Below are positions 11,929 to 38,162 of a DNA stretch of 62,004 nt, one piece after another; position 1 is the stretch's first letter; each line of letters begins with the position of its first letter. The stretch spans positions 1-62,004 of IMG/VR virus record IMGVR_UViG_3300003669_000091. One strand, given 5' to 3'. The notes under the pieces were generated by a model. It was not told the origin of the DNA. It searched no databases and saw nothing but the letters and a program-made list of their open reading frames with translations. The translations under genes were made by a program, and so were the position numbers. The DNA comes from a virus (Duplodnaviria; Caudoviricetes).

Positions 11929-13590
11929 TTAGGAAGGCATGTTGATGATGTTGATCAGAGCGGCGCCCTTGGCAGACGGACCGTGCGGATTCAACTCGGT
12001 GAAGCTGCGGGCGTAGTAGCCGGCGCCTTCGTTAAGGTCGCCACCCATGGCCAACGGCTTGATGACAGCCGGTGCCGCGTCGCCAAGCACGACCGGGTTG
12101 CGGGTGACATCCGTTGCCTTGCCAATCGACAGCACCTTGGTTGCCGTTGCGGTGTCGTACTGGTCCATGTTCGGCGAGTAATAAACGTCGTAGAGACCGA
12201 ACAGGCGGCCAGCGCGGAAGATGCCGGGGCGATCGGAGATACCGGACGACTGGAAGATTTCCGCCGGCAAGAGGCGACAAAACGCCACGAACTTCTTGCT
12301 GCCGTAGAGATGTGTGATGCCGTGGTTCATGGTTGCAATCGCCATCACTTGCGATGCGATGCCGATAGTCGCCGCAAATTCCTGGAAGACCTGGGCGCGA
12401 GTCTTCTGAGCGCCCTGATTGGCCCAATCGAAGTTGAAATCGATCTGGTTCTGCTTTGCGATCCGCATCATCAGACTGAGGGAGTCGAAATGACGTTCGT
12501 TCGCGACCTGAGCATTGATGGCGATGATGCTCTCGCTGTACGGATCGAGGCCAAGTTCGGCCGACATCTGGGTACGCGAATCCGGCGTAACGCGCGTCAG
12601 AACGCGCCACGGAGAAGCGAACAGCGAGTACATATCGACGTTGGTGATGATGCTCGGCGTGATGGAGGGATCACGCTCATAGTCGATGAAGCTGCGGACG
12701 TGGAATTCGTTTGCCACCGGGAGCTTCGGCGTGGTGGTCATCGCAATGTCGCCGGTATCCGTGTTGATCGTGCCGCCGATCTGATACTCGGTACCGGATA
12801 CGTTGATGCTGCCAGACACGGCAGAGGTGCCAGATCCGACCTTGCTGATTTCGACCGCAGCCAGTTGGCCGTTGACATAGACCTGAGTGCGACCACGCAT
12901 CAACTTGACGGCGCCGCCGTTCGAATCACAGGTTTCGTCGTTGGTCTGGACCTTCGTCAGCTTGCCGGTAACGGTGCCATCGACTGCGGACACGGTACAT
13001 TTGTGCGTGCGCACGGACGACACGTAGCGCTTGCCAGAGTACGACGCATCCATCACGCCGTTCTGGGCATATTCGCCGAAGGTATCGCCGGCGACATGGA
13101 CCATGATGGCCAGCTTGGCTTCGTTGCTGGAGATGTCCGCCGGCAGGTAATGTGCGAACGGGATGGCTTCGCTGAAGGCCGACATGATGGCAACAACCGC
13201 ACGATTCGGTTGCAGCGACAGGTTGTCGGCGTGCATCGAGGTGGAGTCGAGGGTGCCGGCTTCCTTGCGACCATCCGTGGTCAGGCCGTAGGCAAGGTGA
13301 AACCCGTATTCGGCAACGTCGGCCGGCATCGGGCAACCATGGCGTGCTTCGTATTCGTTGGCACCGTCCAGGATGGCGCGGTGGATGAACTGGCGGTTGT
13401 CTTCGCCAGCTTCGTCGAGAACCGCCAGCAGGGCGTCCGGAACTTTGACCCCGGCGATGCTCTGGTTCAGGGCAATGGCCATGAAGTCGTCAGCGGCGGC
13501 CGAATCGAACGTGCCAGACTTGACGGAACTTTCACGAAGGCCTTTGACGAATGCGCCGGCCTCGTTGGTGCTGCGCTTGTTGCTTTCCAT
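11929..13590 (-). CDS. Major capsid protein precursor (P1 gp23-like)
   Basis: About 553 aa, strong codon bias, first gene after a late promoter; start 13590 has SD GAGG (alternative ATG 13608). Confidence 0.8.
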   Translation of the reverse strand: MESNKRSTNEAGAFVKGLRESSVKSGTFDSAAADDFMAIALNQSIAGVKVPDALLAVLDEAGEDNRQFIHRAILDGANEYEARHGCPMPADVAEYGFHLAYGLTTDGRKEAGTLDSTSMHADNLSLQPNRAVVAIMSAFSEAIPFAHYLPADISSNEAKLAIMVHVAGDTFGEYAQNGVMDASYSGKRYVSSVRTHKCTVSAVDGTVTGKLTKVQTNDETCDSNGGAVKLMRGRTQVYVNGQLAAVEISKVGSGTSAVSGSINVSGTEYQIGGTINTDTGDIAMTTTPKLPVANEFHVRSFIDYERDPSITPSIITNVDMYSLFASPWRVLTRVTPDSRTQMSAELGLDPYSESIIAINAQVANERHFDSLSLMMRIAKQNQIDFNFDWANQGAQKTRAQVFQEFAATIGIASQVMAIATMNHGITHLYGSKKFVAFCRLLPAEIFQSSGISDRPGIFRAGRLFGLYDVYYSPNMDQYDTATATKVLSIGKATDVTRNPVVLGDAAPAVIKPLAMGGDLNEGAGYYARSFTELNPHGPSAKGAALINIINMPS

Positions 13591-13646
13591 AAGATTTTCC
13601 TCTTCCATTGGTTGGCCGGCTGTCGGCTAAGTAAAGCTGCCGGGCC

Positions 13647-13687
13647 ATTGTTCACCTTGGTTTTGGAGGGAAAATCCGCCGTTTTCC
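13647..13687 (-). promoter_or_regulatory. Predicted late promoter 2 (GGAAAAC-N28-AACAAT)
   Basis: GTTTTCC at 13681-13687; hexamer at 13652-13647. Confidence 0.75.
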
Positions 13688-13692
13688 GTGTT

Positions 13693-15678
13693 TTAAGCGC
13701 TTGAGTATCCGCCTGTCACGACATGGGCGATTCGGCGGTTGGAAAGGTCCTGGCCAGGCTCATTGGCCGGCGGCGTGACGGTGATGTTTCGTCCTGCGTC
13801 ATCCGATGAAAGTGGGACATGAATCTGAGGGGCATCGGGAATCTGCGGGGGAGCCGGCATGGCTGGCATCGTGGGCAGCGGACTGGTGGCAATCTGCGGA
13901 TTTTTTGACACTGCCGAATATGTCTTGATGTAGCCGGAGGCATCCTTCGCCATTTGTTCGTAATATTTGAGCGGAGTGGTCCCGTTGGCATCTGCCTTTC
14001 CAGTTCCGCCTTTGGATACCTCCAGGGCGCCACCAATGCCAGCAATGTGGCGAGCCTTCAACAGGCCGGCAATCTTCCCCTGCGAGTCACCAGGCTGGAT
14101 CGCGCCTTTTCTCACCAATTCGGCATATGCCTTATCGGAATTGACCTTGAAGGCGCCGTCCTGAATATCAGCCGACGCCAAGTACTTTTCCTTGCTCATG
14201 CCGGATACCCAGTTATCCGGATTGTCCAGAAACTTACCCATGCCTCCGGATTTAGCCCACTCCCACTCAGACTTGAATCCACCAGACTTGATCGCGGCCT
14301 TCACTGCGGCACTACCGCCTTTGATCAGACCGGCATCGGCCAGCCACCCGGCGCCAGCTTGATAGCGGCCCATGTATCCCTGCTTGTTGAAGATGCCAAG
14401 TTCCCCGCCGCTACTTTCTGTTTCTGTTGTCGAGGCAACCAAAGCACGGGTATGCGCATCATCAAGGCCATCGATATTCCCTTGCGAGTATTCGGCCCCA
14501 GTGCGCAATGCCCGATCCTTTACCTTGTTCCCCTTCAATCCAGAAAAAAATCTGGCTATTCGACCTTTCTTCGCCTCGGCGTCCTGGCGCTCAAGTTCTT
14601 GATAGGTTCGATTCAGCCGGTAGTTGTATTCAGGCGACGCGGAATCGACGTTGGCGGCTGCCATCGCCGCACGCGCCCGGTCCATCCGCTCATACTCGTC
14701 GGTACCGTTCTGCTCGCGGCGATTCCTCTCTCGAATGGATTCAATTTCGGCATCCTTGTCGATACCGATCTTCTTCAATGCTTGCTTTGCCGGATCAGCA
14801 AGACCCTTCTGAATCCCCTCGGCAATATCCTTGTCAGCCGATGAGTTTCCGGTGAAGAACTTAACCAGGATTGCAATCCCTGCTGCAGCCGCAGTGAGTG
14901 CCGTTGCCATGGGAATCAGAAGCGGGCCAAGGCGTGTCACTGCAGCAATCAAGGCGGATGTCCACGACACGCCTCCGTCCTCGCCTGCGGCAGGCTTATC
15001 TTCAATCGCCTTCAGGCTTTTGACCGTTGCCTTTTCGTAGGTCGTCTGATCAGTACGGATGCCCTTGAGTTCATCCCACAACCGACCGAACCACGTGCTC
15101 TGCCTATTTTCTTCAGCATCGCCAAACATCGTCTTGTAGCCGCGCTTCAATGGCTCTGCGACTTCGTTGAATGCTTTGAATGTCGGGTCAGCTTCTTCTG
15201 AGTTTGAAATTCCTTCGGTTACTGCCGAAGCGACCCGCTGCGCAAAGCCGTCAGATGACATCAACAGCGAACTTCCGCCATCGACTCCGCCTGAGGATCG
15301 CGCGGATTGCGAACCGACTTCACCTGATCGCCCTATGAAGCGACCTCTTCCATCACGGATCCTTGTCGCAACCAGATTATTTGGCGCGACAGTTCGGCTA
15401 TCCGGCTTGGCCGCCTTGACCATTGCCGACATCTGCCTATTTACCGCAGCCGATATCTCTGCCTGAACAGCTGGAGTGGAACTGCGAACCGGCGCAACCG
15501 GCGTTGCTGGAGCTCTGCTCGTCCTGGTCGGAACCTGCGGCGAACTTCCCGATGACCCAGCAAGCGCCTGACGCATGGCGCGCACATCTGACTGGATCGA
15601 ACCAAGCAATGAAACCGCACGCTGAAGATCAATCGGGTCGCCAATCAGAAAGCCATCTGAATCGTGTTGGAGAGTCAT
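13693..15678 (-). CDS. Tape-measure-like protein with lysozyme/lytic-transglycosylase-like domain (P1 Sit-like role)
   Basis: Helical Ala-rich body, central hydrophobic segment, TETESSGG...YMGRYQAG lysozyme-fold motif. Confidence 0.65.
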   Translation of the reverse strand: MTLQHDSDGFLIGDPIDLQRAVSLLGSIQSDVRAMRQALAGSSGSSPQVPTRTSRAPATPVAPVRSSTPAVQAEISAAVNRQMSAMVKAAKPDSRTVAPNNLVATRIRDGRGRFIGRSGEVGSQSARSSGGVDGGSSLLMSSDGFAQRVASAVTEGISNSEEADPTFKAFNEVAEPLKRGYKTMFGDAEENRQSTWFGRLWDELKGIRTDQTTYEKATVKSLKAIEDKPAAGEDGGVSWTSALIAAVTRLGPLLIPMATALTAAAAGIAILVKFFTGNSSADKDIAEGIQKGLADPAKQALKKIGIDKDAEIESIRERNRREQNGTDEYERMDRARAAMAAANVDSASPEYNYRLNRTYQELERQDAEAKKGRIARFFSGLKGNKVKDRALRTGAEYSQGNIDGLDDAHTRALVASTTETESSGGELGIFNKQGYMGRYQAGAGWLADAGLIKGGSAAVKAAIKSGGFKSEWEWAKSGGMGKFLDNPDNWVSGMSKEKYLASADIQDGAFKVNSDKAYAELVRKGAIQPGDSQGKIAGLLKARHIAGIGGALEVSKGGTGKADANGTTPLKYYEQMAKDASGYIKTYSAVSKNPQIATSPLPTMPAMPAPPQIPDAPQIHVPLSSDDAGRNITVTPPANEPGQDLSNRRIAHVVTGGYSSA

Positions 15679-16586
15679 GGCGTCACGAATGTGTCGAGTT
15701 GCGAGAAGGTCATCTGGATTTCTTCGAGGTTGTCATCGCGGCGCGATAGATCAACCTCGAGATTGGCTGGCCTGAACAGGCCGATATCCTCATACCCTCC
15801 GGTCCTTTCATTGCTGATAGTCGAATGGACAACCCGTATCGTGATCGCGTAATGCCCGGGCGGACTTACCGTTCCGTCAGCCGCTGCCGCCGTTGCGCTG
15901 TGCGCTGAAAACCACCGTCGAATGGTTCCGGTTTCGTCATCCTTTGTCGAAATGCGCATCTCGATGGGCTCAGATGAATCAACAATGTCGACCGACGCTG
16001 CCCCTACACGCACCTTTTCCCCTGAAATGGTGATTGGTGCATATGAGACATCCGTCGCAAAGAGATTGAAGTGATCGAATTTCCAGCCTCTTCCGAACAA
16101 ATTGCTCGATACCTCAAGTAGGAATAGATTCTTCCTTGCGAATCGTGTCGCCCTGATCTTGTCGTGCAACCGCTTGGCTTCAAGCGGAGAGATGCCACCG
16201 AACAGAGGTGTCGGCCGTCCCCAGTATTTGACCTGTGACGCGACGCCGTCCATTCCTGGGAAGATGTCCCGCAACAGACCCGAGTCCAGTAACTGAAGGC
16301 CTGCACCTTGAATGTCGCCGTTCATGAGGCTGCCGGCGATATTTATCCCAGTCGTGACGTTGCGTAGCCTTCCTGGAGGCACGGCCCGGTTGAAGGCATT
16401 CATGGCCGCGTTCTTGGCCATGCCTACGCCGATAGTGGATACCGCCTGAGCAAGCTTACCGCCGCCCAACTCTTTGGCCACTGCGGACCCGATACCACCC
16501 AGCGCATTGTCCAGCATGCCCGATGCCGTAGCGCTCACACTTCCGGATGATGCAAGGGCGCGTGCCGTTTCGTCGTAAAGGCTCAC
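15675..16586 (-). CDS. Tail tube-like/baseplate hub protein
   Basis: C-terminal tube-like pattern (ISTKDDETGTIRRWF...LEVDLSRR..LEEIQMTFSQ). Confidence 0.5.
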   Translation of the reverse strand: MSLYDETARALASSGSVSATASGMLDNALGGIGSAVAKELGGGKLAQAVSTIGVGMAKNAAMNAFNRAVPPGRLRNVTTGINIAGSLMNGDIQGAGLQLLDSGLLRDIFPGMDGVASQVKYWGRPTPLFGGISPLEAKRLHDKIRATRFARKNLFLLEVSSNLFGRGWKFDHFNLFATDVSYAPITISGEKVRVGAASVDIVDSSEPIEMRISTKDDETGTIRRWFSAHSATAAAADGTVSPPGHYAITIRVVHSTISNERTGGYEDIGLFRPANLEVDLSRRDDNLEEIQMTFSQLDTFVTP

Positions 16587-16589
16587 TGA

Positions 16590-18131
16590 CTACTCCCCGC
16601 TCTCTGCGCCCGCGGGTGCGGCGGTAATCGCCTTGGCCAATGTTTCGGCAAGGTCATCGTCAAGCATCATGAACTTGGCCAAGAAGGTCTTTACCACGTC
16701 GGACGGAGCTCCGATGTCCTTAAGATCGCGCATAGTCTGAACCAGTTGCGCGCCTGCCAACATCTGGTCCGACTTGGTCTTCTGGCGTTCTGCCTCGAGG
16801 GCGGAAATTGATCCGTAGAAATTGACTGTCCACGGCCGCTCATGAACCGGGAACACGAACCCATACCGGTTCATGGTGTGGATATCGATCGCGTGGTTCG
16901 CAAATTCGGTGTAGGCATTGCGGATGACAAGAGAAACCTCGGCGGCCTGGGCCGATACCCGGAAAAACCCACCCTCTCCCAGCCCACCAGACAACTGATC
17001 GGCGAAGCCCAACATGGCGATATCTGACCCGAGGGCTCCGGCCATCATCTTTGCATGCAACAAGACATCCTCGATCGACATGGTTCCACCACGCCCCTGG
17101 CCATTACCCATTGACTGGATAGCGGCCACTTGTTTTTCCCCAAAGATCGGCAGGATGTGGCGAATTCTCTCCAGCACTGGCTGTCCTGACTTGACAGCCA
17201 TTTCCGCGCGCTGCTTCGATAGTTGGAGCATGTTGATCAGGGATGTGGTGAATTTCTTCGCTTGATCACCAGTCATTCCATCCATATTTGCAGTGACGAT
17301 CGATTCATCAATCGAATCCATCCATCGCTGACCAACGAGCCCCAGCAAAGAAGCCGACAACTTGTCATAGGCCGGCTCGGCATTGAAGAGAAACGACCCG
17401 CCGACCATTGCCGGCATGATCGGAAGCGCGTCGATATCGTCCTCGGTCAGTGCTAGGCGTAGCGACTTCTCTACCACGCCATACTGTGGAACCCATTGCG
17501 TGCGCGGCATCTTCAGACGTGCAATCTGGGATACGTCCATGCGCTCGAAATTGCGCTCGCCGAGATAGACGGCGAAACCGACCGTCCGACTTCCGCGCTC
17601 AAATGGTTGAACCAACTGCGGGCGCAACATCTCGTCGATGTGCAGATCGATCAGACCTTTACCACGGCGGGCGTAGATTCGTGCGTATGAGTCGCCAAAG
17701 GCGCACCCGGTGTAGCAGCTGGTGAAAGCTTCCTTATTGAGCAGCGGCCCAACGTTGTCGGCAATCTCCTTCACGATCTTGTCGAGGCGTTTGTCCTTTG
17801 CAAACTCAGGCTTTGTTTCGACGAAGATCCGCTGACCGGTTGTCTCATGGCCGCCCAGAGCGGTCGTTACGTGCAAACGCAATGCCGTCGAAACGAGAGG
17901 ATCACCTTCCATCTGTGCCCACTTGTCGTAGATCACCTGGCGGGCACGGGCTTCACGGTTGCCGCTTGAAAGCAGAGAGGCGACCGTTGTGGCACCGGCG
18001 CCGTAGAGAAGCGAGTCAGACTGCGATATCTGCTGTGCCGGAGCGATGAACGATGACGCCCATCTCCTTGCGCTCATTCCCATTCGGGACAGCACGCCGG
18101 CAGGTTTGGTTGGTGCGTTTTGAATAGGCAT
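16590..18131 (-). CDS. Portal protein (P1 Prt-like)
   Basis: 513 aa; QMEGDPLVSTALRLHVTTAL and MLGFADQLSGGLGEGGFFRVS resemble P1-type portals. Confidence 0.8.
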   Translation of the reverse strand: MPIQNAPTKPAGVLSRMGMSARRWASSFIAPAQQISQSDSLLYGAGATTVASLLSSGNREARARQVIYDKWAQMEGDPLVSTALRLHVTTALGGHETTGQRIFVETKPEFAKDKRLDKIVKEIADNVGPLLNKEAFTSCYTGCAFGDSYARIYARRGKGLIDLHIDEMLRPQLVQPFERGSRTVGFAVYLGERNFERMDVSQIARLKMPRTQWVPQYGVVEKSLRLALTEDDIDALPIMPAMVGGSFLFNAEPAYDKLSASLLGLVGQRWMDSIDESIVTANMDGMTGDQAKKFTTSLINMLQLSKQRAEMAVKSGQPVLERIRHILPIFGEKQVAAIQSMGNGQGRGGTMSIEDVLLHAKMMAGALGSDIAMLGFADQLSGGLGEGGFFRVSAQAAEVSLVIRNAYTEFANHAIDIHTMNRYGFVFPVHERPWTVNFYGSISALEAERQKTKSDQMLAGAQLVQTMRDLKDIGAPSDVVKTFLAKFMMLDDDLAETLAKAITAAPAGAESGE

Positions 18132-18161
18132 GGCGCGCCACGGTCTGAGGACAATGGCGCG

Positions 18162-18202
18162 ATGGTAGGCTTGCTATGGTGCGGAATATGGCTTGGTTTT
18201 CC
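18162..18202 (-). promoter_or_regulatory. Predicted late promoter 3 (GGAAAAC-N28-TACCAT)
   Basis: GTTTTCC at 18196-18202; hexamer at 18167-18162. Confidence 0.75.
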
Positions 18203-23641: not shown

Positions 23642-23961
23642 GACTTGCAATAGACCTTTCGTTCCCAACGGTCCTTGCACTCAGTTCCTGCGCACGACTT
23701 GATGCTGTTCTTCATCCACTGCATGTTTGCGACTGAGTCGCACCCTCCGCAGTCGAGCGGAATGACATGATCCTTTGACCAACCTGGACATGAACCACTC
23801 TTGCGGCCGGTCACTGGGCACGGGTAAATCCTCTGGAATTCAGCCTTGACCTTTTCCGATCTGACGATGGAATCGGAGCGCCCGCAGTAGCGCAGATCGT
23901 CTGCTGCCGAAACTTGGCACCAAATGATCATGCCGATGATTGCCGCAATGGCTTTTCGCAT
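23638..23961 (-). CDS. HNH-motif protein with N-terminal signal peptide
   Basis: DHVIPLDCGGCDSVANMQW HNH motif; MRKAIAAIIGMIIWCQVSA signal-like leader; SD TAGGAG. Confidence 0.75.
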   Translation of the reverse strand: MRKAIAAIIGMIIWCQVSAADDLRYCGRSDSIVRSEKVKAEFQRIYPCPVTGRKSGSCPGWSKDHVIPLDCGGCDSVANMQWMKNSIKSCAGTECKDRWERKVYCKS

Positions 23962-23989
23962 GATTGCTCCTACCGTTGATCGATGACCA

Positions 23990-24030
23990 ATGATAGGAGT
24001 CGCTTCATCACCAAATTTCGGCGGTTTTCC
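23990..24030 (-). promoter_or_regulatory. Predicted late promoter 4 (GGAAAAC-N28-TATCAT)
   Basis: GTTTTCC at 24024-24030; hexamer at 23995-23990. Confidence 0.8.
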
Positions 24031-26568: not shown

Positions 26569-29500
26569 TCAAGCCAGGTTGGCAGTAGCGGCCAGCATCG
26601 CGGCCTGGTAGGAATCAACAGCCCTCTCGAACAGGCCGGCCATTTCTGCATCGTCCTGATGACGCATGAAGGCAGCTTCGAGCAGATCGGCCAGGTCAGG
26701 GTCGCTGATGTCGGATACGGTACCGTCGATCACCGACTGAAACAGAGCGCGGTCGGCAGATTTCTGCGGATCATCCACAGGCTGGACCGGATCCGGTTGC
26801 GGCTCCACGACGGGCGGCGAATCATTCACTGTTGAAGCCTCGCTGACCGGCGCAGGCGAAGAACTGAAAAGGCTCTCGACCATATCGACGATTCCGCCGT
26901 AACTCGCAGCCCCTGCGGCATGCGCACCGCTTACCGCCACCGGGTTGGCGCCAGACATGCCGGTATAGATGATGGTCTCGCCCTGTTCATCGATTCGTGC
27001 TCGGCCGATACCCTGGCCATCCTTGATGATCTGTGCGCAAATTCCGTACGGCAGCGCCGGAATTCCTGTATCGGCGCCTTGATCGCTTTCGGCGTCATCG
27101 AACAGTCCATCCGACATCGAATAGTTGAAGTCGCCGAAATGGGCGTTTCCACCGAGGCGCCGGGTAGTGTCGCGAACGATCATGGCCGACTTGGCGAACT
27201 CAACCGTCTTTCCGGCAAATTCAGCACCATCCTTGGTTTCGGCGATCACGTCATCAACGTAGTAGCGGAACTCTTCATCGATATATCGTGCGATGGACTT
27301 TGCCGACGGATAGGCTTCCGGATCAAGGCGATCCTGATCGATATCGACAGCTTTTCCATCCTCGCCGAAGTGCCAGGATACCGATACGTCGATTGCACCG
27401 GAGTCTCCAAAGTAGATGGTGGCCACCAACGAACGCTCATCCAGGCTTACTTCCCAGCCGATGGCTTTCAGTTGCTCGGCAATGTCGGCCATGGTCAGCG
27501 CATCCGCGGTGGTTTCCTCTTCGATCACCTCCGGCGCTTCTCCTTCGATGAATAGGTTGAACACCAGGTGGCCATTGGAATCATCCAGCGTTGCCGGTGC
27601 ACCATTGACTTCGATTCCATCCGCGCCTATATTCTGAGTGTCGGTATTCCCTGAATTGTGATCAGGGGGCAATGCCGACACAGAGGCGGCGCTTGAGGAA
27701 TCAAGTGCCGTTTTTGTTTCCACCTCATCGGTGTCCAGCAACAAGTCGTAGTGGAATGCTCCATGCAAGTCTTCCTCAACGATCACGTCCAGAGCGATGA
27801 CATTGCCAGCAAGGGAAACTGAATTCTTCAGCCGGTAATAGCCAAACACTTCAGGCTTTTTGTGCTTCTTGAAGTTCTCCTCTGGAATAGAGGCAATAGC
27901 CGTCGAAATGATCGTCTTGATGGCTGGGATGATCTTCAGCTTGCGCGGATCAGCAGAGAACGCAATGGTTTCCTTGATGCCACGCTGACGGATTTCGACC
28001 TGCTTGCCGAGAATTGGGCAATCAACCCACTCTCCCCGCATCGCAACGAGAAAATCCTTGGCAGCGGCCCGAAGTGATTTCTTTCCATCCTCGGTATCGG
28101 GGAACTCTCCAAGTTCATTTCCGGTTACCGTAACCGTGGCAGGTTGCGCCGCTGACTTGGCAGCTTCCTCGGCTGCAGCCTGCGCGATCGCTTCCTTGCG
28201 ACGTGCGGTTTCGGCCAGCGCTGCAGCGTCCACTTCAGCAGCAATCACCTCCGGCGCCTTGGTCAGGTCGTCGACCATTTCATTGACCGAATAGCCGATG
28301 ATATTTTCACCGAACTTCTTGAATGTGAAATCGACCTCGCTGTCTTCCTTGTAGAGCCGAGCGTCAATCGGAGCCCTGCCTTCCCAGCCAAGCGCGCCAA
28401 GCGCCGAGCGGACAGCGTCGATGCGTACATTGAAGAAGGTATTCAACGCATCCTGATGCAGAGCCTGCAAGTCATCGCTCGCCATCACTGAAGCGTAGTT
28501 CTCCGCCATGGTCGGATCGAACGGAACAACGGCGGAAACCGCCGATGCATCCTTGACCATGTTGTAGGCCTCATCTGCCGTTGCCGACCAGTCGCTGCCG
28601 ACGCCGCTACCATCCGCATACAGAGCCTTGATCACTCGGAACGGAGTGTCCTTCATAACGTTGATCTGCACGGCGTAGGCCTGTCCCCACTCCTTAGCAA
28701 GCGCTCCCATCGCCATTGCCATCTGCTGATTACTGTCGGCTGGCATGAAGTCATCAGGTAGTTCTCCGGCTTCGTCCTGGATCACCCCGTAGTAATCCGG
28801 ATTTCCGATCCCCCAAAGCGTTCCATTGGCTTGCTTTTCAAGCTCTCTGAATCGACTCATTGCCGGTTGCGACTGAACCTGCATCGATTCGGCCTCGACC
28901 GTCGAAACTTCAATCTGGTGCAACAGGCCGGCCAGTTCAGATTCCATCCCGGCAATCTCGTCCTTGAGTGCCTGGATGCGATCCATCCGCTCGGCCCGGC
29001 GGATGTTCGCGCGCCGGAATGCGGCGCTGTTCTTGTCTGCCAGAAGCATGACGCGACGCGCGACTTCGCGAACGTTCAGGTCACGGCCGCGCTCGGGCGC
29101 TACGACAATGGTGATGTCCTTCTTGTTCAACAACCATTTCCAGCTGATGAGTTCATCATCCGGTGCCAACTTGCTTGGTGTCGAATCCGGGTTGTGCAGC
29201 AAAATCGAAATAGTCTGTCCGTCGGACAGTTCCCAGATCACCGCTACATTGACTACGCCACGGAAACGATAGGGGTCCGAAACTTGGAAAGACAGCGGCG
29301 TTACCGATCCGCCGGCGCGTTTCATCACGGTATTGATCACGTTCATGGTGCGCTCGATGGCAACGTACGGCGTTACCAGCGCATCAAGAGCGAGTACTTC
29401 GTCAGCGATCTCACGGAAATCATTCACGCAGATCGAATCGAATACCAATCCATCTTCCGCATCGTCACGCCGGATTTCGTAAAGAACCTGGTCAAGAGTC

Positions 29501-30099
29501 ATTCCGAGCGGCGTCGCGTTGGTTCCCCAATGCACCTTGTTGGTCATTTTCATGGATTCGTGTCCTTCGAAAGGGAGGTAGTCTTTGACGGCCGGGCGCG
29601 ACTTGTTGCCGTGCTTGAGCCACCATTTGAATTGGGCAATTGACATGGAAACGAGGCTTTTGAGCCCATCCCAACCTCGGTCGTAGCTGTCCAGATACGC
29701 ACGCTTGGCCATGGCCTCATCGATGAAGCCAAGCATCACCTTGTGTTCGTCAAACTTGCCTGCAACGTACTGATTTATTACGTAGACCATTTCGGCCTGA
29801 GGCCACGGACCAATAAAGCAATCGACCGCGTCTCCGTCTGCGCCCTTGGTGCCGCTCAGATATCCGTAGTGGGCGGCCAAGCGGGTACGCCACGACTTTC
29901 CGGAAGGATCGACGCCACATCGAAATGAGTTGCGCGGCTGCTCTATCGCAATGGGCAGGCCATGCAGCGAGACGCGCCCGACTTTATAGTTCCCCGCTTC
30001 ACATTGCGCCTGGGATGGGGTGGGAATCGGGTTGTTTCCGAAGGCTCCAGAGTGAGCGCCGGCCTCAATCCGTGAAAAGATGTCGTGGTGGTTTGGCAT
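26569..30099 (-). CDS. darA: DarA-like antirestriction polyvalent protein (InPPase-like + DarA core + LPD3-like + DarA C-terminal domains); predicted leaderless
   Basis: HYGYLSGTKGADGDAVDCFIGP..FDEHKVMLGF; LSDGQTISILLHNP..WLLNKKDITIVVAPERG; TGNELG..HYD; DRALFQSVIDG C-terminus. Confidence 0.8.
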   Translation of the reverse strand: MPNHHDIFSRIEAGAHSGAFGNNPIPTPSQAQCEAGNYKVGRVSLHGLPIAIEQPRNSFRCGVDPSGKSWRTRLAAHYGYLSGTKGADGDAVDCFIGPWPQAEMVYVINQYVAGKFDEHKVMLGFIDEAMAKRAYLDSYDRGWDGLKSLVSMSIAQFKWWLKHGNKSRPAVKDYLPFEGHESMKMTNKVHWGTNATPLGMTLDQVLYEIRRDDAEDGLVFDSICVNDFREIADEVLALDALVTPYVAIERTMNVINTVMKRAGGSVTPLSFQVSDPYRFRGVVNVAVIWELSDGQTISILLHNPDSTPSKLAPDDELISWKWLLNKKDITIVVAPERGRDLNVREVARRVMLLADKNSAAFRRANIRRAERMDRIQALKDEIAGMESELAGLLHQIEVSTVEAESMQVQSQPAMSRFRELEKQANGTLWGIGNPDYYGVIQDEAGELPDDFMPADSNQQMAMAMGALAKEWGQAYAVQINVMKDTPFRVIKALYADGSGVGSDWSATADEAYNMVKDASAVSAVVPFDPTMAENYASVMASDDLQALHQDALNTFFNVRIDAVRSALGALGWEGRAPIDARLYKEDSEVDFTFKKFGENIIGYSVNEMVDDLTKAPEVIAAEVDAAALAETARRKEAIAQAAAEEAAKSAAQPATVTVTGNELGEFPDTEDGKKSLRAAAKDFLVAMRGEWVDCPILGKQVEIRQRGIKETIAFSADPRKLKIIPAIKTIISTAIASIPEENFKKHKKPEVFGYYRLKNSVSLAGNVIALDVIVEEDLHGAFHYDLLLDTDEVETKTALDSSSAASVSALPPDHNSGNTDTQNIGADGIEVNGAPATLDDSNGHLVFNLFIEGEAPEVIEEETTADALTMADIAEQLKAIGWEVSLDERSLVATIYFGDSGAIDVSVSWHFGEDGKAVDIDQDRLDPEAYPSAKSIARYIDEEFRYYVDDVIAETKDGAEFAGKTVEFAKSAMIVRDTTRRLGGNAHFGDFNYSMSDGLFDDAESDQGADTGIPALPYGICAQIIKDGQGIGRARIDEQGETIIYTGMSGANPVAVSGAHAAGAASYGGIVDMVESLFSSSPAPVSEASTVNDSPPVVEPQPDPVQPVDDPQKSADRALFQSVIDGTVSDISDPDLADLLEAAFMRHQDDAEMAGLFERAVDSYQAAMLAATANLA

Positions 30100-30105
30100 T
30101 TGGCG

Positions 30106-30146
30106 ATTGTGCGGCCCGCCACGACACCCCAATTTCTTGGTTTTCC
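30106..30146 (-). promoter_or_regulatory. Predicted late promoter 5 (GGAAAAC-N28-CACAAT)
   Basis: GTTTTCC at 30140-30146; hexamer at 30111-30106; ATG 30099 follows after 6 nt. Confidence 0.8.
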
Positions 30147-32564: not shown

Positions 32565-33065
32565 TTAGCTGTAGTTCGACGAATTCCCGGGGATCACTTC
32601 CCCGAAATAATGGAAGAACAGCGTGCCGTTGAAGGTCAGAACCTGGGAGCGGTTTTCCCAGTCGCGGTCCGGATTGTCCATCTGCATGAAGCAATCGACG
32701 ATGCGCTTGGCGCGCAGGAACTTGACCGGCGTTCCTTCGTAAATCTTGGCGTTGAACACGCCACCCTTGGCCAGCAAATCGATGAGCATCTTATCGACCG
32801 AGCCAGCGATGGTTTCGTAAAAGGCCACAGCCCCTTGCTGATGAACCTTCGCCTGCTGCGGTTGCCAGGCGCCGCCGCCCAACGGCGTTGATATCTCGAT
32901 TTCTCCGGCCGGAGAGAGTTCAGGCCAAGGAGCCTGCTTCGCCAACAGGTACATCTGCTCGAAACCTTCAATTTCGAAGGTGAAGTCAGAAGCAATGGCC
33001 TTGGCACCCTGACCGGCAGCGCCATCATAGAACTGCTTGAGGTAAGCGGCATTGGAGACGGTCAT
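32565..33065 (-). CDS. Tail tube-like protein
   Basis: 166 aa, strong codon bias, first gene after a late promoter; beta-rich tube-like pattern. Confidence 0.6.
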   Translation of the reverse strand: MTVSNAAYLKQFYDGAAGQGAKAIASDFTFEIEGFEQMYLLAKQAPWPELSPAGEIEISTPLGGGAWQPQQAKVHQQGAVAFYETIAGSVDKMLIDLLAKGGVFNAKIYEGTPVKFLRAKRIVDCFMQMDNPDRDWENRSQVLTFNGTLFFHYFGEVIPGNSSNYS

Positions 33066-33102
33066 GATTTCCTCGCATTGGTGTGGTTTTCCATGCGAGT
33101 AA

Positions 33103-33143
33103 AGTCTGAGGCGGCCGTTTACCTCATATTTGCGCCGTTTTCC
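33103..33143 (-). promoter_or_regulatory. Predicted late promoter 6 (GGAAAAC-N28-CAGACT)
   Basis: GTTTTCC at 33137-33143; hexamer at 33108-33103. Confidence 0.7.
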
Positions 33144-33458: not shown

Positions 33459-34119
33459 CCCCCCCTTTCCTTGGTAGGAATACTGGTCCTGATTCAGAAA
33501 ATTCAAGTTGGAACAGGTGCGACAGCTTGACTCGCGCCGCTTCGAACATGGCAACCATGACTGCGAAATCGCTTTCTGCATACGCCATCAGTATCTTCAT
33601 GCGATCAGCCAAGGCCTCATCGCTGATACTTACGCCTACCTGCTCTCTGTCCTGATCACGAATGAACTGGGCAGCCATGGCCCCGACCATCCAATGGAGG
33701 CGTCCTGATATTCCAGAAATCTCTCCGTTCAGTCGTTCGATCGACTCCGCCATGGCACCGGTCAGATGCTGCAAAAGCCAGACATCTCCACCGTGCTCAC
33801 CGGCCGCCACAGTCGGCGACTTGTGGTCGACGGAAGCATCCAGATAGTCCGAATACCTCCCATTGCCAACTGAAAAATCCGGTCCATCGTCGGATACCGA
33901 TGCCAGGTAGTGCGCAGTGGCCATGGCTCTCTCTTGGACAGTCCAATCAGCCGGGTCAGCTACGCCCTTGATGCTCTGTGTGGCTCGACGCAAGAACTCC
34001 GTGGTGGAAGCTTGCTCGAGACTATCGGGGATTGCCATTACAGCCAGCGAATCACCGATGGCAAGTTCTCGCAACTGAAGCGTCAGTCGGCGCGTACGCA
34101 GGGTCGGGATATGGATCAT
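33358..34119 (-). CDS. Baseplate/tail assembly protein
   Basis: 253 aa; LQLRELAIGD and WTVQER motifs; in the tail operon. Confidence 0.55.
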   Translation of the reverse strand: MIHIPTLRTRRLTLQLRELAIGDSLAVMAIPDSLEQASTTEFLRRATQSIKGVADPADWTVQERAMATAHYLASVSDDGPDFSVGNGRYSDYLDASVDHKSPTVAAGEHGGDVWLLQHLTGAMAESIERLNGEISGISGRLHWMVGAMAAQFIRDQDREQVGVSISDEALADRMKILMAYAESDFAVMVAMFEAARVKLSHLFQLEFSESGPVFLPRKGGDGGADLPPARFPAYSCISEFTRRIIGQSRGDVA

Positions 34120-34628
34120 GGTTCCTCGCTTGGAGCGATTACGTGCAAGTCGTCGCGTCTGTTGCAGACAAAGCGTCGCGTGTAGGGTGGAATACCGATA
34201 GTCGTTTCGGTATCGACAATCTCGAATGCCAGTTTCACGATGTCACCGATAATCAGGTAGAAGACATCACCCTTTGCCGGTTCGAACCATTTTTCGGTAC
34301 CGGGTTCTTCCTCTGGCTCAATCAGAAAACGGAACTCATCAACTCCGGACGGCCCGTTGCTTGCATCCCGGCGTTCGTTCAATTGCCCTGGCGAGAATTG
34401 CTCGGCCGGAAGCACGTAGCCATTGCCGATCCATTCCCAACTGATGTCCTCTTCGTCCTCAGAACTGATCACCCCAAGGCCGCCCATAGTCGGCATGCCG
34501 GACTCTTTCGGAGCATCGCGATTGATCGTCTTTCGAAAGACCTGGCAATTCGCGGAGTTCGGATGGTGAATCACCACGTTTCTCGCCATCTTGTTGATGG
34601 CATTCGGTACGCCATTCAGCATGCGCAC
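34116..34628 (-). CDS. Virion morphogenesis protein (head closure-like)
   Basis: Beta-rich, PAKGDVFYL motif. Confidence 0.5.
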   Translation of the reverse strand: MRMLNGVPNAINKMARNVVIHHPNSANCQVFRKTINRDAPKESGMPTMGGLGVISSEDEEDISWEWIGNGYVLPAEQFSPGQLNERRDASNGPSGVDEFRFLIEPEEEPGTEKWFEPAKGDVFYLIIGDIVKLAFEIVDTETTIGIPPYTRRFVCNRRDDLHVIAPSEEP

Positions 34629-35704
34629 TATCCTTTCTGAGCCGCTGCGGCCGCTGCGGCAATTTGTGCATCGGTAAAACCAAGCGCCTTCATGCCGGCG
34701 ATCTGTGCATCGCTAATTCTTCCACTTGAAAGTGCTGTTGCAATACTACGTGATGCAGCGGCAACACGCTTTGGCGAAGGCGCCTGTTCAGCGGCTTTGG
34801 CAAGTGCTCTGCGAGTACGCGCTGCTACTCGGTCGTTATCTCTTCGCCTCTTTGCTGCGTCGATATCTCGACCGCGCTGTTTGGATGCCGCCGCAGCCGT
34901 CTCCGCCTGTTTCTGTGCAAGATTGGCCTTCCCTGTCTCGGATGCGCGGGTCTTCTCGATCATCCTTGTGAGGAAATTGAGAACGCCAGGGCCCGACTCG
35001 ATTTCAGCCATCACACGCAAGACGTGCTTACAGGCAACGCCATGGAGGTTCGGGTTACGAATCTTCGGGTAGCCTGATTCTGGCCGACCCGCATTGAATC
35101 CTCCGATGCTCGCAATGTAGCGGAACCAGTAGCGGTGCCTTCCACAGTCGCAGTCGAACGCCAGGGGCTGTTTCCGGAGCCATTGAGCAGACTTCTTTGG
35201 TGCATCATTTGCTCCGATTGCCGCGGCAAAGTACGACATGAAGGCAACGGTCACATGATGACGCGTAACGTCAGAATCGGGACCGGCATTGGTCACAAAG
35301 CGGACTTTCTCGCGGAGGGATGAAACTGCCACCGCATGCCGAATCTGAGTGTTTGCCTTTTCACGGTCCTCGGCGAGAGAGAAATCAAGCACCTTGCGCG
35401 CGGTGATCCCACCCTTGTACTTCCCCTGCAGCATTCGGATGTTGTGCCGATAGGCTGCAAGGTCGTCGGCTGTAATCGCCCGTACGGTACCGCCGAGGGT
35501 GGTGTAAAGCAGTCGCGTGGCGTCGTATTCGCCCTGGACATCATTCGGATTGAGGATGATTGACTGAGGGTGGCGTGCCGCCTCTGTCCGCTGCTGCAGG
35601 TCAGCCTTTGCACGTTGCTGCTGTTCCTTGACCGATCCCTTGACCTTGCCAAGCCAGGATGCTGTCGACGATTTGCCGGTACTCTTACCCTTTGGTTTGG
35701 CCAT
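34628..35704 (-). CDS. SWIM-type zinc-finger phage protein
   Basis: FDCDCGRHRYWFRY...GVACKHVLRV (CxC...CxH). Confidence 0.7.
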   Translation of the reverse strand: MAKPKGKSTGKSSTASWLGKVKGSVKEQQQRAKADLQQRTEAARHPQSIILNPNDVQGEYDATRLLYTTLGGTVRAITADDLAAYRHNIRMLQGKYKGGITARKVLDFSLAEDREKANTQIRHAVAVSSLREKVRFVTNAGPDSDVTRHHVTVAFMSYFAAAIGANDAPKKSAQWLRKQPLAFDCDCGRHRYWFRYIASIGGFNAGRPESGYPKIRNPNLHGVACKHVLRVMAEIESGPGVLNFLTRMIEKTRASETGKANLAQKQAETAAAASKQRGRDIDAAKRRRDNDRVAARTRRALAKAAEQAPSPKRVAAASRSIATALSSGRISDAQIAGMKALGFTDAQIAAAAAAAQKG

Positions 35705-35705
35705 G

Positions 35706-36044
35706 CTACTCAGCCCAGACCGGAGCGCCGCTGTTGCGATATTCCGCGATCGACTCGAAACCAGCCATCCGCTTGATTTGCATCAGCTGCCCTTCAGTCG
35801 GGAGGGTCAGCCTGACCATCGGGATACCAACGTCAGGGGAACTGATGCCTGCTGCAGCCATCACGGCCAAGTACTCGTCACGCCGGCCATAGACGCGCTG
35901 GGAAATGAGGGTCGGGTCCATGACTTCGTCAGGCGTCACCTCATGCCATATCGCCTGCTCCCACATTTTCGTACGCAGAGCAAAATCACGCACCGCTCGA
36001 TAGAACCGGTTGGCGGCGCCGGTATCCTTGTCGATAGCACTCAT
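35706..36044 (-). CDS. Baseplate gpX/gp53 LysM-like protein
   Basis: EVTPDE..DPTLISQRVYG....LAVMAAAG...LTLPT. Confidence 0.6.
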   Translation of the reverse strand: MSAIDKDTGAANRFYRAVRDFALRTKMWEQAIWHEVTPDEVMDPTLISQRVYGRRDEYLAVMAAAGISSPDVGIPMVRLTLPTEGQLMQIKRMAGFESIAEYRNSGAPVWAE

Positions 36045-36544
36045 ATCGAGACAATCCGGCCTTGCATGATGGCGACCTGGGCGTCGTAAATGGTATCCAT
36101 CATGTCGAATACCTTCGCGGCAGTGTCGGCCTTACGGTAGGCATACCAACAGCTGGCCAGTGCCGCCATCTGCAAACAACTGATCCCTTCCGAAACGCGA
36201 TATTTAGGGCCGCGCGTGTCAGCGCCATCCTTCTCGATCACGGAATCAGGATTCGCTCGCTGGGCTTGCTGACCGAACACCAGGCGAGGGCTTTTTTCAT
36301 CCGTCGCGACGCCAGACAGCAAGGCATAGTAGGCCACGATGGCATCGGCGATATCGTCGTTGGAAAACGTTGCGTCGCGCTCGATACCTGGCTCGTTGGT
36401 GATCACCATGCAATCGCGCAACCGATCGCGCCGGAATGCCGCCTCGCGACTGATGACCAAAACACCCGTATCTTCGGCATAGGCCGAGTAGAGCGTCATC
36501 ATCTTCCCGCCAAAACCAGAAATGGTGGTCTGAATCGGGATCAC
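36041..36544 (-). CDS. Hypothetical protein in the morphogenesis operon
   Basis: Overlaps both neighbours by 4 bp. Confidence 0.6.
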   Translation of the reverse strand: MIPIQTTISGFGGKMMTLYSAYAEDTGVLVISREAAFRRDRLRDCMVITNEPGIERDATFSNDDIADAIVAYYALLSGVATDEKSPRLVFGQQAQRANPDSVIEKDGADTRGPKYRVSEGISCLQMAALASCWYAYRKADTAAKVFDMMDTIYDAQVAIMQGRIVSI

Positions 36545-37269
36545 GGGCGCGGCTCCGTATTGACGCCGACAACCTCGATCACCAGCGGATAGCCAGCCGG
36601 GTCGGTCGTGCTGCCCACAGTGCCCTGCCCGTCGTTCGGCTCATTGAGCTTCGGTGCGGAGAAAAGCGGGATCGAGGCCTTGAGTGTGAGATCGGCCGCC
36701 AGCACGGAAAGGTTTTTGTTCCCTGTCTTGACTTCAATGGCCGGAACTTCCGGTGTCTCGATCTGGACCGGGAATGGCAAGGCCTCGCCGGCGAAGCTGT
36801 ATTGGGCGAAGAACCGGCGATTATCGACGGCATCCACGAACAGCGAGAACTGCGAAGCCAGTGATTTGGCCGTCGCTTCATCCACAGCGCAGAACGCGAC
36901 CTGGGCGCGGATGTCGCCGCCCATAACACGCAGGCCGAAACAGCGCTCCTTCTCGTCGCCCGGAAGAATCACATCCATGCGCTCTGAAATCTGGCGTCCG
37001 AAGTCACGACCGGTCGGGATGTAGTCCTTCGCCATGGCGACGATCACAACCGGTAGCTTCGGCGGCTGGGTAGGCGCTTGGTCTGTATCGTTGCGCTGCC
37101 ACGAGGAAACCATTTCCTCGACCTGATCAATCATCCGGCCCGGGGCCCAGACGCATGACTTTGCTAGGCCGCGCACAACGAATTCATGCATCGGCTTGGT
37201 TGTCGGTACCAGCGACGAATAGAACTCGGCGATGTAGGTGCCGAAGGCTTGTTTGACCTCGATGGTCAT
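36541..37269 (-). CDS. Tail completion/terminator-like protein
   Basis: KLPVVIVAM motif; position after the protease gene. Confidence 0.5.
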   Translation of the reverse strand: MTIEVKQAFGTYIAEFYSSLVPTTKPMHEFVVRGLAKSCVWAPGRMIDQVEEMVSSWQRNDTDQAPTQPPKLPVVIVAMAKDYIPTGRDFGRQISERMDVILPGDEKERCFGLRVMGGDIRAQVAFCAVDEATAKSLASQFSLFVDAVDNRRFFAQYSFAGEALPFPVQIETPEVPAIEVKTGNKNLSVLAADLTLKASIPLFSAPKLNEPNDGQGTVGSTTDPAGYPLVIEVVGVNTEPRP

Positions 37270-38096
37270 CAGCCCCTACCGGCCTTTGAGAAGGAAGCGA
37301 CGATGCGATCGTATTCGGCTGCTTGCGCCGGATCGGTCTTCGATGGCTCAATGATCCGCGGCAGAGCAGACTGTCGGAACAATGCAGAGTCGCGACGGAT
37401 GCGCTCAACAGGCTCGATGCTTACCGAAAATCCAGCAGTTCCATCCAGGGTAAGAATAGGCTTCATTTTTCCGCTGGCCAGCATGGACAGCAATTGCTCG
37501 TTCTCGGCGCGCAGGTTGTCGCAGGTATCGGCCAAGGCATCGTTGAGCGCCGTCGCCGAATCGTACAGCGCCAGCATGCCGCTAACCTGCTCTTTGTAGG
37601 ACGCTGAAGCCATGTCGTCGAGCGTCATGCCTTCCGTATCGTCCATGGTCAGTTCGTAGCCACGGTTACCCGAGTAGTTCGGGCTCAGCACATAGTCGAA
37701 ACCGTAAAACCGGTTGTTGATTTCATCGATGGCGGAAGAGAACCCGCCGGTCTTTCCGTTGTACAGCCGAGCAGCAAGCTGCCCCGCTTCCGTGTCCAGG
37801 AATTCGACCTTGTGTTCGATGGTTCCGTCCTGGTAGGCGCGGAGATGCGTCGAAACGATTGCTGGTTCTACCTTCTGTGCCTTGCCATTGGCGATGCCAC
37901 CCTCGGCGGCATTCAGGCCCCAGATGCGGCGAGGCCAGTGACCGTAGAACCCGACCAGGTCGCGTAGCTTTACCCGCTCCTGACAGGCCGGGCCGTTGAT
38001 CTCGCTGCAGATGGCCTGAATGTTGAAATTCCGCTCTTTACCGGTGAAGCGCCGGCCGCGGTCCTTCAGGTTGTATTTGATGATTGGCGTTTCCAT
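37269..38096 (-). CDS. pro: Prohead (head-processing) protease, P1 Pro-like
   Basis: GFYGHWPRR, IEHKVEFLDTEAG, GGFSSA, FYGFDYVLSPNY; start ATG 38096 after GGAGAG. Confidence 0.8.
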   Translation of the reverse strand: METPIIKYNLKDRGRRFTGKERNFNIQAICSEINGPACQERVKLRDLVGFYGHWPRRIWGLNAAEGGIANGKAQKVEPAIVSTHLRAYQDGTIEHKVEFLDTEAGQLAARLYNGKTGGFSSAIDEINNRFYGFDYVLSPNYSGNRGYELTMDDTEGMTLDDMASASYKEQVSGMLALYDSATALNDALADTCDNLRAENEQLLSMLASGKMKPILTLDGTAGFSVSIEPVERIRRDSALFRQSALPRIIEPSKTDPAQAAEYDRIVASFSKAGRG

Positions 38097-38121
38097 TGCG
38101 CATCTCTCCGGTGATGCGCTG

Positions 38122-38162
38122 ATGTTATGGTCGCTCGGTTGATGCTTTCCTCGTTGTTTTCC
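38122..38162 (-). promoter_or_regulatory. Predicted late promoter 7 (GGAAAAC-N28-TAACAT)
   Basis: GTTTTCC at 38156-38162; hexamer at 38127-38122. Confidence 0.8.

Follow-up and report, generated by a model that had tools for sequence, protein, structure and literature searches.

Predicted promoter-relieved hairpins over ribosome-binding sites at operon heads of a P1-like provirus

In bacteriophage T4, genes e (lysozyme), soc, 49 and I-TevI carry hairpins that sequester the ribosome-binding site (RBS) and that are relieved by initiation at an internal late promoter; I-TevII, I-TevIII, mobE and segB are also listed with hairpins of this type, and some T4-like phages carry gene e without such a structure (PMC3014915, in the sections available). 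The T4 lock has so far passed for an oddity of individual lysis and homing-endonuclease genes. The present analysis concerns a provirus record from IMG/VR of 62,004 bases (the window, by which the whole stretch of DNA is meant), with a completeness estimate of about 70%, and in particular a class of promoters marked by the heptamer GGAAAAC, several of which are followed by an untranslated leader. A first-pass annotation of this DNA had proposed that hairpins masking the RBS form there only in read-through RNA, by the logic known from T4, and the precedent that it invoked is borne out by the genes named above. Judged by its sequence, the window is an incomplete P1-like provirus, distant kin of Xanthomonas phage Rb1 and of P1. 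The mechanism as such is already known from T4 e, soc, 49 and I-TevI; what appears to be new is its predicted use in a temperate P1-like phage group. We consider it fairly probable that the translation of four operon-head genes of the window (encoding an HNH-like protein, the tail tube protein, the prohead protease and the portal protein) would be tied to their own promoters by an RBS-masking hairpin in read-through RNA.

The likeness to T4, whose side of the comparison is again taken from the available sections of PMC3014915, extends to several features. The Shine-Dalgarno (SD) sequence and/or the AUG is paired in the longer transcript (predicted at four sites of the window), the promoter lies within the DNA encoding the 5' strand of the stem and its own RNA lacks that strand (in the window, under the predicted transcription start site, TSS), one of the locked window genes would encode a small HNH-like nuclease, reminiscent of the homing-endonuclease cases of T4, and conservation is patchy, as it is among T4-like phages. 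Unlike T4, the phage of the window is temperate and P1/Rb1-like, its promoter is of a putative sigma-70-type, bipartite form (GGAAAAC-N28-tAnnAT) in contrast with the T4 late promoter TATAAATA, and the 5' arm usually corresponds to the discriminator between the -10 box and +1. Further differences are that the predicted device stands at the head of four virion-protein operons within a single genome, beside leaderless promoters of the same class, that read-through RNA would come largely from promoters of that same class, and that the lock of the window is a prediction from sequence.

The comparison with P1 is of another kind. The window shares related virion genes with P1 (its portal is 27% identical to P1 Prt) and a DarA_N polyvalent protein, and in both phages many dispersed promoters of one special class, without a canonical -35 box, precede morphogenetic operons (PMC10695390 and PMC8198154, for P1, in the sections available). 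The late promoters of P1 are activated by Lpa and have a 9-bp inverted repeat at -22, 4–9 nt from the -10 box (annotation of NC_005856.1; available sections of PMC10695390 and PMC8198154). Unlike that element, GGAAAAC is not an inverted repeat and lies 28 nt upstream of the -10 box; the window promoters are not of the Lpa-dependent P1 type. A tblastn search with P1 Lpa against the window, the related records G001, G002 and G004 and part of Rb1 returned no homologue (best E 1.2–1.9); with the window about 70% complete, a remote homologue could escape it. The GGAAAAC class presumably needs an activator factor, for which PHROG scans of 20 open reading frames (ORFs) and Pfam scans gave no candidate late activator.

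Leaderless mRNAs, such as that of lambda cI transcribed from PRM, form a further parallel. Two promoters of the window and many in its relatives place an ATG at the predicted +1 without an SD, as judged by spacing only, and translation from such an ATG would likewise depend on initiation at that promoter; in the leaderless cases this dependence would come from the 5'-terminal AUG, in the leadered ones from the removal of a hairpin arm. A limited literature search for a promoter-relieved RBS hairpin in P1-like or temperate phages or prophages found no such report, only T4 reviews.

The promoter class and the leadered sites

GGAAAAC occurs 21 times in the window against 7.5 copies expected, and 17 of the 21 lie on the gene strand. 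Seven intergenic sites align over 48 nt as GGAAAAC, N5, an A/T-rich hexamer, N17 and tAnnAT, with the -10-like hexamer at positions 29–34 after the motif; an eighth, at 8237, came from a scan with a position weight matrix, whose scores for the seven sites on which it was trained are circular. Without any motif being imposed, portal-homology loci show the same spacing, positions 29–34 being occupied by [TC]AC[CT]AT in L003, L004, L005, L006, L007, L009, L010 and L011 and by the variants CAAAAT (L008) and TATGCT (L056), also 28 nt past GGAAAAC. In four related records, the pattern GGAAAAC-N29-ANNNT proved strictly strand-specific, with 7/0, 5/0, 0/2 and 0/4 occurrences (forward/reverse), and a reversed-pattern control gave 1, 0, 0 and 0. 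At two window genes, g30099 and g8190, the A of the first ATG falls at position 41–42 after the motif, 7–8 nt past the -10 hexamer and without an SD, and the same position is taken by the ATG of the portal gene in G002, G003, G005, G004 and L011, and also in L037 and L020. This leaderless spacing fixes the predicted +1 at position 41–42; for all sites, +1 was placed by one fixed rule, 7 nt past the -10 box, with no per-site tuning. The promoter read from these alignments would be bipartite and of the sigma-70 type, with GGAAAAC at about -47 to -41, an A/T-rich hexamer at the -35 position, a 17-nt spacer, tAnnAT and a predicted +1 7 nt further on.

The analysis also yielded, as a useful by-product, the promoter class itself, GGAAAAC-N28-tAnnAT, in which some ATGs stand leaderless at +1. 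It is conserved in proviruses of Ectothiorhodospira, Halothiobacillus and uncultured hosts, and a variant form exists in Rb1 (L001), where the sites at 12041, 28233, 37098 and 39574 have the variant motifs GGAAAAA, GGAAATC and GGAACAT (portal), with 27–28 nt to the -10 box; the -10 hexamers CAGACT (tube) and CACAAT (Dar-like gene) are identical between Rb1 and the window. Since the class also drives, by prediction, an AlpA-like regulator and an Ant-like anti-repressor, it is not confined to virion genes, and the term late may be too narrow.

Three other readings of the motif were tried and rejected. By eye, the aligned sites show no GG-N10-GC of the sigma-54 type, and with GGAAAAC as a -35 hexamer there is no consistent -10 box at 17-nt spacing. 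The initial promoter model, with GGAAAAC at -21 and the adjacent A/T-rich hexamer as the -10 box, put four of the five stems inside the promoter-initiated RNA and left no contrast with longer RNA; it was abandoned because GC-rich relatives do not keep the adjacent hexamer but do keep both the one 28 nt further on and the spacing to the ATG.

The leadered promoters of the window are as follows.

23961..24030, minus strand: promoter and leader of the HNH gene; GGAAAAC 24030–24024, -35-like AAATTT 24018–24013, -10 TATCAT 23995–23990, predicted TSS about 23983, ATG 23961
18131..18202, minus strand: promoter and leader of the portal gene, without SD; GGAAAAC 18202–18196, -35-like CATATT 18190–18185, -10 TACCAT 18167–18162, predicted TSS about 18155, ATG 18131
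38096..38162, minus strand: promoter and leader of the prohead protease gene; GGAAAAC 38162–38156, -10 TAACAT 38127–38122, predicted TSS about 38115, ATG 38096
33065..33143, minus strand: promoter and leader of the tail tube gene; GGAAAAC 33143–33137, -35-like AAATAT 33131–33126, -10 CAGACT 33108–33103, predicted TSS about 33096, ATG 33065
13590..13687, minus strand: promoter and 50-nt leader of the major capsid gene; GGAAAAC 13687–13681, -35-like ATTTTC 13675–13670, -10 AACAAT 13652–13647, predicted TSS about 13640, ATG 13590
45098..45170, minus strand: sixth leadered promoter, of the gene for an AlpA-like regulator (g45098); GGAAAAC 45170–45164, -10 TTTAAT 45135–45130, predicted TSS about 45123, ATG 45098

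The five inverted repeats that the first-pass annotation had described at the first five of these sites are present on the minus strand where it had placed them, and the promoter geometry that it implied, in which the 5' arm precedes or spans the TSS, is also the one that relatives conserve. At HNH, 23999–23988 pairs with 23978–23967 over 12 positions (10 Watson-Crick pairs, one G-U and one mismatch; loop 9 nt; helix -11.0 kcal/mol), the 5' arm containing the -10 box and the 3' arm covering the SD UAGGAG and stopping 5 nt short of the ATG. The portal stem joins the discriminator (18161–18155) to 18140–18134 by seven perfect pairs, CGCGCCA/TGGCGCG, around a loop of 14 nt (helix -10.2 kcal/mol, or -17.2 if extended). 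Seven perfect pairs are likewise formed at the protease (38119–38113 with 38104–38098; loop 8 nt; helix -10.8 kcal/mol), where the hairpin loop holds the SD GGAGA, with the 3' arm placed after it and before the AUG, and at the tube (33099–33093 with 33078–33072; loop 14 nt; helix -8.1 kcal/mol), where the 3' arm overlaps the SD GAGG. The capsid stem is built otherwise, with eight perfect pairs between the -35 region (13676–13669) and the SD region (13600–13593) across a 68-nt loop (helix -4.3 kcal/mol). Stem length alone is unremarkable, since 11 of 63 gene starts, including four of the five sites, have a perfect stem of at least 7 bp with a 3' arm touching -20..+3; the rare feature is the position relative to the predicted TSS.

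As regards the portal leader (18131–18167), it looks like a 24-nt insertion in comparison with leaderless relatives: after TACCAT-CGCGCC, an ATT replaces the ATG of the relatives, CGCGCCAT recurs at the real start, and the ATT shares the reading frame of the ATG, uninterrupted by a stop codon.

Opening cost of the RBS in long and short RNAs

The proposed mechanism starts from a GC-rich stretch between the -10 box and +1 (at HNH, from the -10 box itself) that can pair with the SD or with the nucleotides directly preceding the AUG. RNA initiated upstream would carry both arms and fold into a local hairpin with a stem of 7–12 bp and a loop of 8–14 nt, lifting the cost of opening the RBS by about 8–11 kcal/mol, and this difference would be expected to alter translation. 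RNA from the gene's own promoter would begin inside or just after the 5' arm, form no hairpin and leave the site open, and translation of the first gene of each operon would depend on the firing of its own promoter. As many downstream genes of the window overlap by 1–4 nt, translational coupling could pass the lock down the operon. The purpose could be to silence virion genes in the lysogen or in the early phase, which would follow T4, or to insulate protein dosage from upstream operons of the same class.

The cost of opening -14..+5 around the start codon (opening energy) was computed for the short, TSS-initiated RNA and for a long RNA with 60 nt more. S17 denotes the part of the RBS opening energy that is due to the 17 nt immediately preceding the predicted +1, and an S17 of 7 was taken as the threshold for a lock. 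Opening energies are in kcal/mol, and z refers to folding against shuffles.

HNH: opening energy 7.7 short, 15.8 long; S17 12.0; z -2.54 long, +0.52 short
Tube: opening energy 3.5 short, 13.3 long; S17 7.3; z -2.11 long, +0.98 short
Protease: opening energy 2.8 short, 14.0 long; S17 10.5; z -2.07 long, +0.80 short
Portal: opening energy 7.8 short, 17.2 long; S17 8.9; z -2.11 long, +0.82 short
Capsid: opening energy 4.8 short, 7.7 long; S17 -0.7; z -0.50 long
g45098: opening energy 5.4 short, 7.6 long; S17 2.5 (maximum 5.0 over -17..-1); z -0.35 long

The comparison of long with TSS-initiated leaders and with shuffles, which had been put forward as the check on the proposal, came out in its favour at HNH, tube, protease and portal (z of the long leaders -2.07 to -2.54, with 3–7 of 200 shuffles as good; short leaders +0.5 to +1.0), while the capsid gave no contrast; nor did g45098. 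The claim that all five leadered late promoters are locked thus holds in silico for four of them, is weak for the capsid and overlooked the sixth leadered promoter (45170–45123), which is weakly locked. The ranking of the portal as the weakest case has to be reversed: the portal is among the strongest (S17 8.9) and the capsid is the weakest (S17 -0.7). A T4-type reading is therefore supported in silico, with predicted starts, for four of the five sites.

Several controls bear on the energy contrast. Among 63 genes, the long-RNA opening energies of the four locked sites rank 1, 3, 7 and 10, and that of the capsid 40. When the leaders of 55 other window genes were truncated at four lengths, the mean difference was 0.1–0.5 and the maximum 4.6–7.6, and none of the 55 reached 8 at any length; in 275 S17 trials (the same 55 genes at five leader lengths), none reached 7 and one reached 5. 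The S17 result is stable across three definitions of the RBS window, and the minimum-energy folds of the four long leaders, obtained with a separate folding tool, include the stems described above. When the 5' end was moved base by base, the fall in opening energy came at -6 to 0 in the case of tube, protease and portal and at -16 to -10 in that of HNH; the end of the 5' arm coincides with the predicted +1. Replacing the 47 nt upstream of +1 by those of 13 other promoters never reproduced the native effect (0/13 at each of the five sites). Composition was controlled by a block-swap shuffle of these 47 nt that preserves dinucleotide counts (60 shuffles per site), with results that are weighed below.

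Read-through into these promoters is plausible on the gene map: the genes are co-directional, and no intrinsic terminator precedes any of the five promoters in a consensus scan, whose terminator-like matches stay at chance level (20 vs 19.3; 18 vs 17.7). Transcripts from the promoter of g30099 are predicted to continue into the promoter of HNH, the motif of which starts 9 nt past the upstream stop codon. At HNH the 5' arm is 39 nt away from the upstream stop codon and at the portal 69 nt, so that a terminating ribosome would not melt the arm. Over the whole window, Rfam 15 gave 0 matches at the gathering score. Between 8 and 48 kb, the gene strand has a single clear intrinsic terminator, at 9060–9077 (minus strand), CGGGCACTTCGGTGCCCG followed by T7, just upstream of the SD of the gene starting at 9041.

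If the lock operates as proposed, a temperate P1-like group would use the T4 device at several morphogenetic operon heads, alongside leaderless starts. This would explain how a co-directional, terminator-poor genome keeps its virion proteins off, or correctly dosed, despite read-through, and complementarity between discriminator and RBS would provide a simple sequence rule for annotation and phage engineering.

Recurrence in relatives and rival explanations

All findable leadered promoters of the class were examined by the same rule in six lineages (G005, a near-duplicate of G002, was left out). An S17 of 7 is reached by 10 of 21 leadered promoters, the six of the window included, and locks of the window type recur in four other lineages with unrelated stem sequences.

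G001: portal, S17 8.6 (GCGCAT/ATGCGC); tube, 9.0 (AAGCCCTTA/TAAGGGCTT, then UUUUGUU); 55371, 7.1; capsid homologue, 0.1; 23426, 1.0
G002: protease, S17 14.3 (GCCCCT/AGGGGC); tube, 0.2; 66733, 0.5
G004: 33046, S17 7.5 (GAGCCC/GGGCTC); 8089, 2.3
L056: portal, S17 8.2 (CCCGCATC/GATGCGGG)
Rb1: protease, S17 0.3; capsid, -1.0; tube, -0.4; DarA-like gene, 2.2

Other genes of the relatives reach an S17 of 7 in 2 of 81 cases (G001), 0 of 69 (G002) and 0 of 31 (G004). As for P1, two of its 11 late promoters were examined, LPhot (S17 1.7) and LPpac (4.6), and neither is clearly locked. In all three leadered portal genes the stem is kept, with its 5' arm at positions 35–43 after the motif, in three different sequences (CGCGCCA/TGGCGCG, GCGCAT/ATGCGC and CCCGCATC/GATGCGGG). 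A portal search of viral, genome and metagenome contigs yielded relatives at 52–64% identity only, none close enough for base-by-base covariation, so that these same-place stems of different sequence are the strongest argument for conservation. Within the near-identical G002/G003/G005/L003 group, whose portal stem has 10 bp, no double compensatory change was found, only a C-to-U change giving a G-U pair (L005) and one mismatch (L010). The tube promoter of G001 (L008:5502–5580, which corresponds to G001:56813) is embedded in the 9-bp hairpin AAGCCCTTA/TAAGGGCTT, followed by TTTTGTT; this hairpin would both mask the SD and bring about termination of read-through RNA, and promoter-initiated RNA would start inside its 5' arm.

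A number of results weigh against the proposed lock. Shuffled upstream segments still add a mean of 5.0 (tube), 6.6 (protease) and 4.3 kcal/mol (portal), and the observed value is reached by 3 of 60 shuffles at the tube, 3 at the protease, 1 at the portal, 1 at HNH and 0 at the capsid. The effect is thus partly compositional, a GC-rich discriminator facing a G-rich RBS, with the specific register supplying the rest. The outcome also hinges on the placement of the start site within about 3 nt: a start 3 nt further upstream lifts the cost in the short RNA to 7.5 (tube), 8.1 (protease) and 13.2 kcal/mol (portal), with the stems partly restored. The capsid stem adds only 2.6–3.0 kcal/mol, in keeping with its negative S17 and with a long leader no better than shuffles, and the capsid leader of about 50 nt is essentially unlocked in all three lineages examined (window, G001 and Rb1). 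At g45098, 24 of 60 shuffles reach the weak observed value, and at G001 55371, one of the promoters counted as locked, 30 of 60 reach the value observed there. The assertion that the device is applied systematically is overstated: the lock has in silico support at four of the window's five sites and is seen at 10 of 21 leadered promoters across lineages and at none of the four of Rb1, and the capsid and g45098 are weak. Finally, read-through RNA would stem largely from same-class neighbours, such as the promoter of g30099 reading into HNH, which weakens an early-versus-late temporal role.

The composition effect lends some weight to the idea that the complementarity is a functionless by-product of sequence evolution, arising from GC-rich discriminators, purine-rich RBSs, the CAT of the -10 box opposite the ATG, and local duplications or palindromes. 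Shuffles adding 4–7 kcal/mol at tube, protease and portal would be expected from it, as would the patchy conservation and the RBS-touching stems at 11 of 63 gene starts, and the portal stem may be a by-product of the 24-nt insertion or duplication, its leader holding CGCGCCAT twice, as a direct repeat, and the palindromic TGGCGCGCCA. We nevertheless regard this origin as unlikely, because at each of the five sites the native segment exceeds every one of the 13 promoter segments swapped in, the S17 of the 10 locked promoters is reached in 0 of 275 window trials and in 2 of 181 genes of relatives, and orthologous portal leaders of three lineages have a stem in the same place in three sequences. 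An equally improbable account takes the hairpins as real RNA structures with another job, such as 3'-end protection, processing, or a pause or termination that insulates operons, the overlap with RBS and start site being secondary. It would fit the location of the stems in intergenic gaps at operon junctions, the resemblance of the G001 tube hairpin, with its UUUUGUU, to an intrinsic terminator, and the better folding of the long leaders than of shuffles. None of the five window stems, however, is followed by a U run or appeared in the terminator scan, so that they do not qualify as intrinsic terminators, and stems of 7–12 bp are short for RNase III. Nothing, moreover, would require a 3'-end stabiliser to have its 5' arm stop at the next +1 or its 3' arm cover the SD or AUG, whereas in most locked cases the energy step lies at most 6 nt from the predicted +1.

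The choice of start site decides a further alternative, in which transcription begins before the hairpins, for instance some 18 nt past GGAAAAC, with the A/T-rich hexamer as the -10 box and GGAAAAC in the role of a P1-type -22 box. Both arms would then be present in every transcript, and the hairpins would act as constant translational dampers or 5' stabilisers. In the window, the hexamer 5 nt past GGAAAAC is indeed A/T-rich (AAATTT, ATTTTC, AAATAT and CATATT), which would place GGAAAAC near -21 like the P1 -22 box, and with that start four sites are as closed in short RNA as in long RNA. In GC-rich relatives, however, this hexamer is not -10-like (CCTGAG, GCGGGC, CCCGCG, ACCAAC and GCTGAT), while positions 29–34 stay tAnnAT; the ATGs of homologous genes lie exactly 7–8 nt past the downstream hexamer in many lineages, and the two hexamers are separated by a 17-nt spacer. 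A closed RBS on all portal, tube and protease transcripts would also be odd for abundant virion proteins. An upstream start is for these reasons very unlikely, and a lock relieved by the gene's own promoter remains the preferred explanation of the four sites.

Leaderless promoters and neighbouring genes

Two promoters of the class in the window appear, from their spacing, to be leaderless.

30099..30146, minus strand: leaderless promoter; GGAAAAC 30146–30140, -10 CACAAT 30111–30106, ATG 30099 exactly at the predicted +1
8190..8237, minus strand: leaderless promoter; GGAAAAC 8237–8231, -10 GAAAAT 8202–8197, ATG 8190 at the predicted +1

The gene at 8190 (94 aa) is conserved in relatives and, by spacing, leaderless there too. 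An ATG at the predicted +1 without SD is seen at these two window sites (8190–8237 and 30099–30146) and in L030, L016, L023, L019, L037, L020 and L011:2349, and most relatives have an apparently leaderless portal gene, in contrast to the 24-nt leader of the window. At leaderless promoters, too, there is a tendency for the AUG to be enclosed in a stem that has its 5' arm before +1. The clearest examples are the L030 portal (10-bp stem, z -3.53) and g30099, the AUG of which is inside such a stem in the long RNA (z -1.97); the others are weaker (z -0.5 to -1.5), including g8190, where the GGCGGC directly next to the ATG finds its pairing partner before +1 (z -0.54). A third arrangement is found in L014 (G004:33046) and at L011:10192, where a 9-codon ORF runs from the predicted +1 and its TGA overlaps the ATG of the main gene (ATGA). 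Its length and geometry are conserved between the two lineages and its peptides differ, and it has the appearance of a leaderless mini-ORF with coupling to the main gene.

It is conceivable, though we hold this only tentatively, that promoter-gated translation is a genome-wide design principle, the first gene of most GGAAAAC operons being conditional on its own promoter by three devices that would interconvert at orthologous genes: a leaderless AUG at +1, a hairpin lock with the -10/discriminator region as its 5' arm, and a leaderless 9-codon mini-ORF overlapping the main start by AUGA (G004 33046 and L011 10192). If so, promoter-gated translation would silence virion genes in the lysogen and uncouple operon dosage from upstream neighbours, with the G001 tube lock doubling as a terminator.

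The large tiling ORFs of the window are all on the minus strand. The portal protein matches phrog_1497 (E 6e-151) and is 56.7% identical to the Rb1 portal and about 27% to P1 Prt; the capsid ORF shares 51% identity with the gene of Rb1 that bears the annotation major capsid protein, the protease 49% with the one annotated as 'prohead core protein protease', and the tail tube ORF matches phrog_1120. A megablast search with 6.3 kb of the window against a phage collection gave no match. The product of the HNH gene has 107 aa, a hydrophobic N-terminus and a DH..P...N stretch, which we take to be an HNH motif; it has a weak PHROG match to endonuclease VII (E 3e-5), and a Pfam search with it gave no match. 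The gene starting at 45098 encodes an AlpA-like regulator of 79 aa (Pfam PF05930) and is followed by an Ant-like anti-repressor gene (44098–44856, PHROG Ant family).

26569–30099 (minus strand) encodes a polyvalent protein of 1176 aa with the Pfam domains InPase, DarA_N and LPD3; it is similar to the Dar anti-restriction proteins of P1, and the leaderless promoter at its start is predicted to drive its expression. Between the terminase large subunit gene and the protease promoter there is a gap of 464 nt (window 38097–38560), which holds the only plausible plus-strand ORF of the region (38257–38553, 98 aa), with no convincing SD and no PHROG or Pfam match. On the minus strand, the protease frame is open back to an ATG at 38351, which is probably spurious. 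Elsewhere, within a minus-strand ORF, 50822–50874 is a perfect tandem array of a hexamer, 8.8 copies of TCCCTG on the plus strand (GGGACA on the gene strand).

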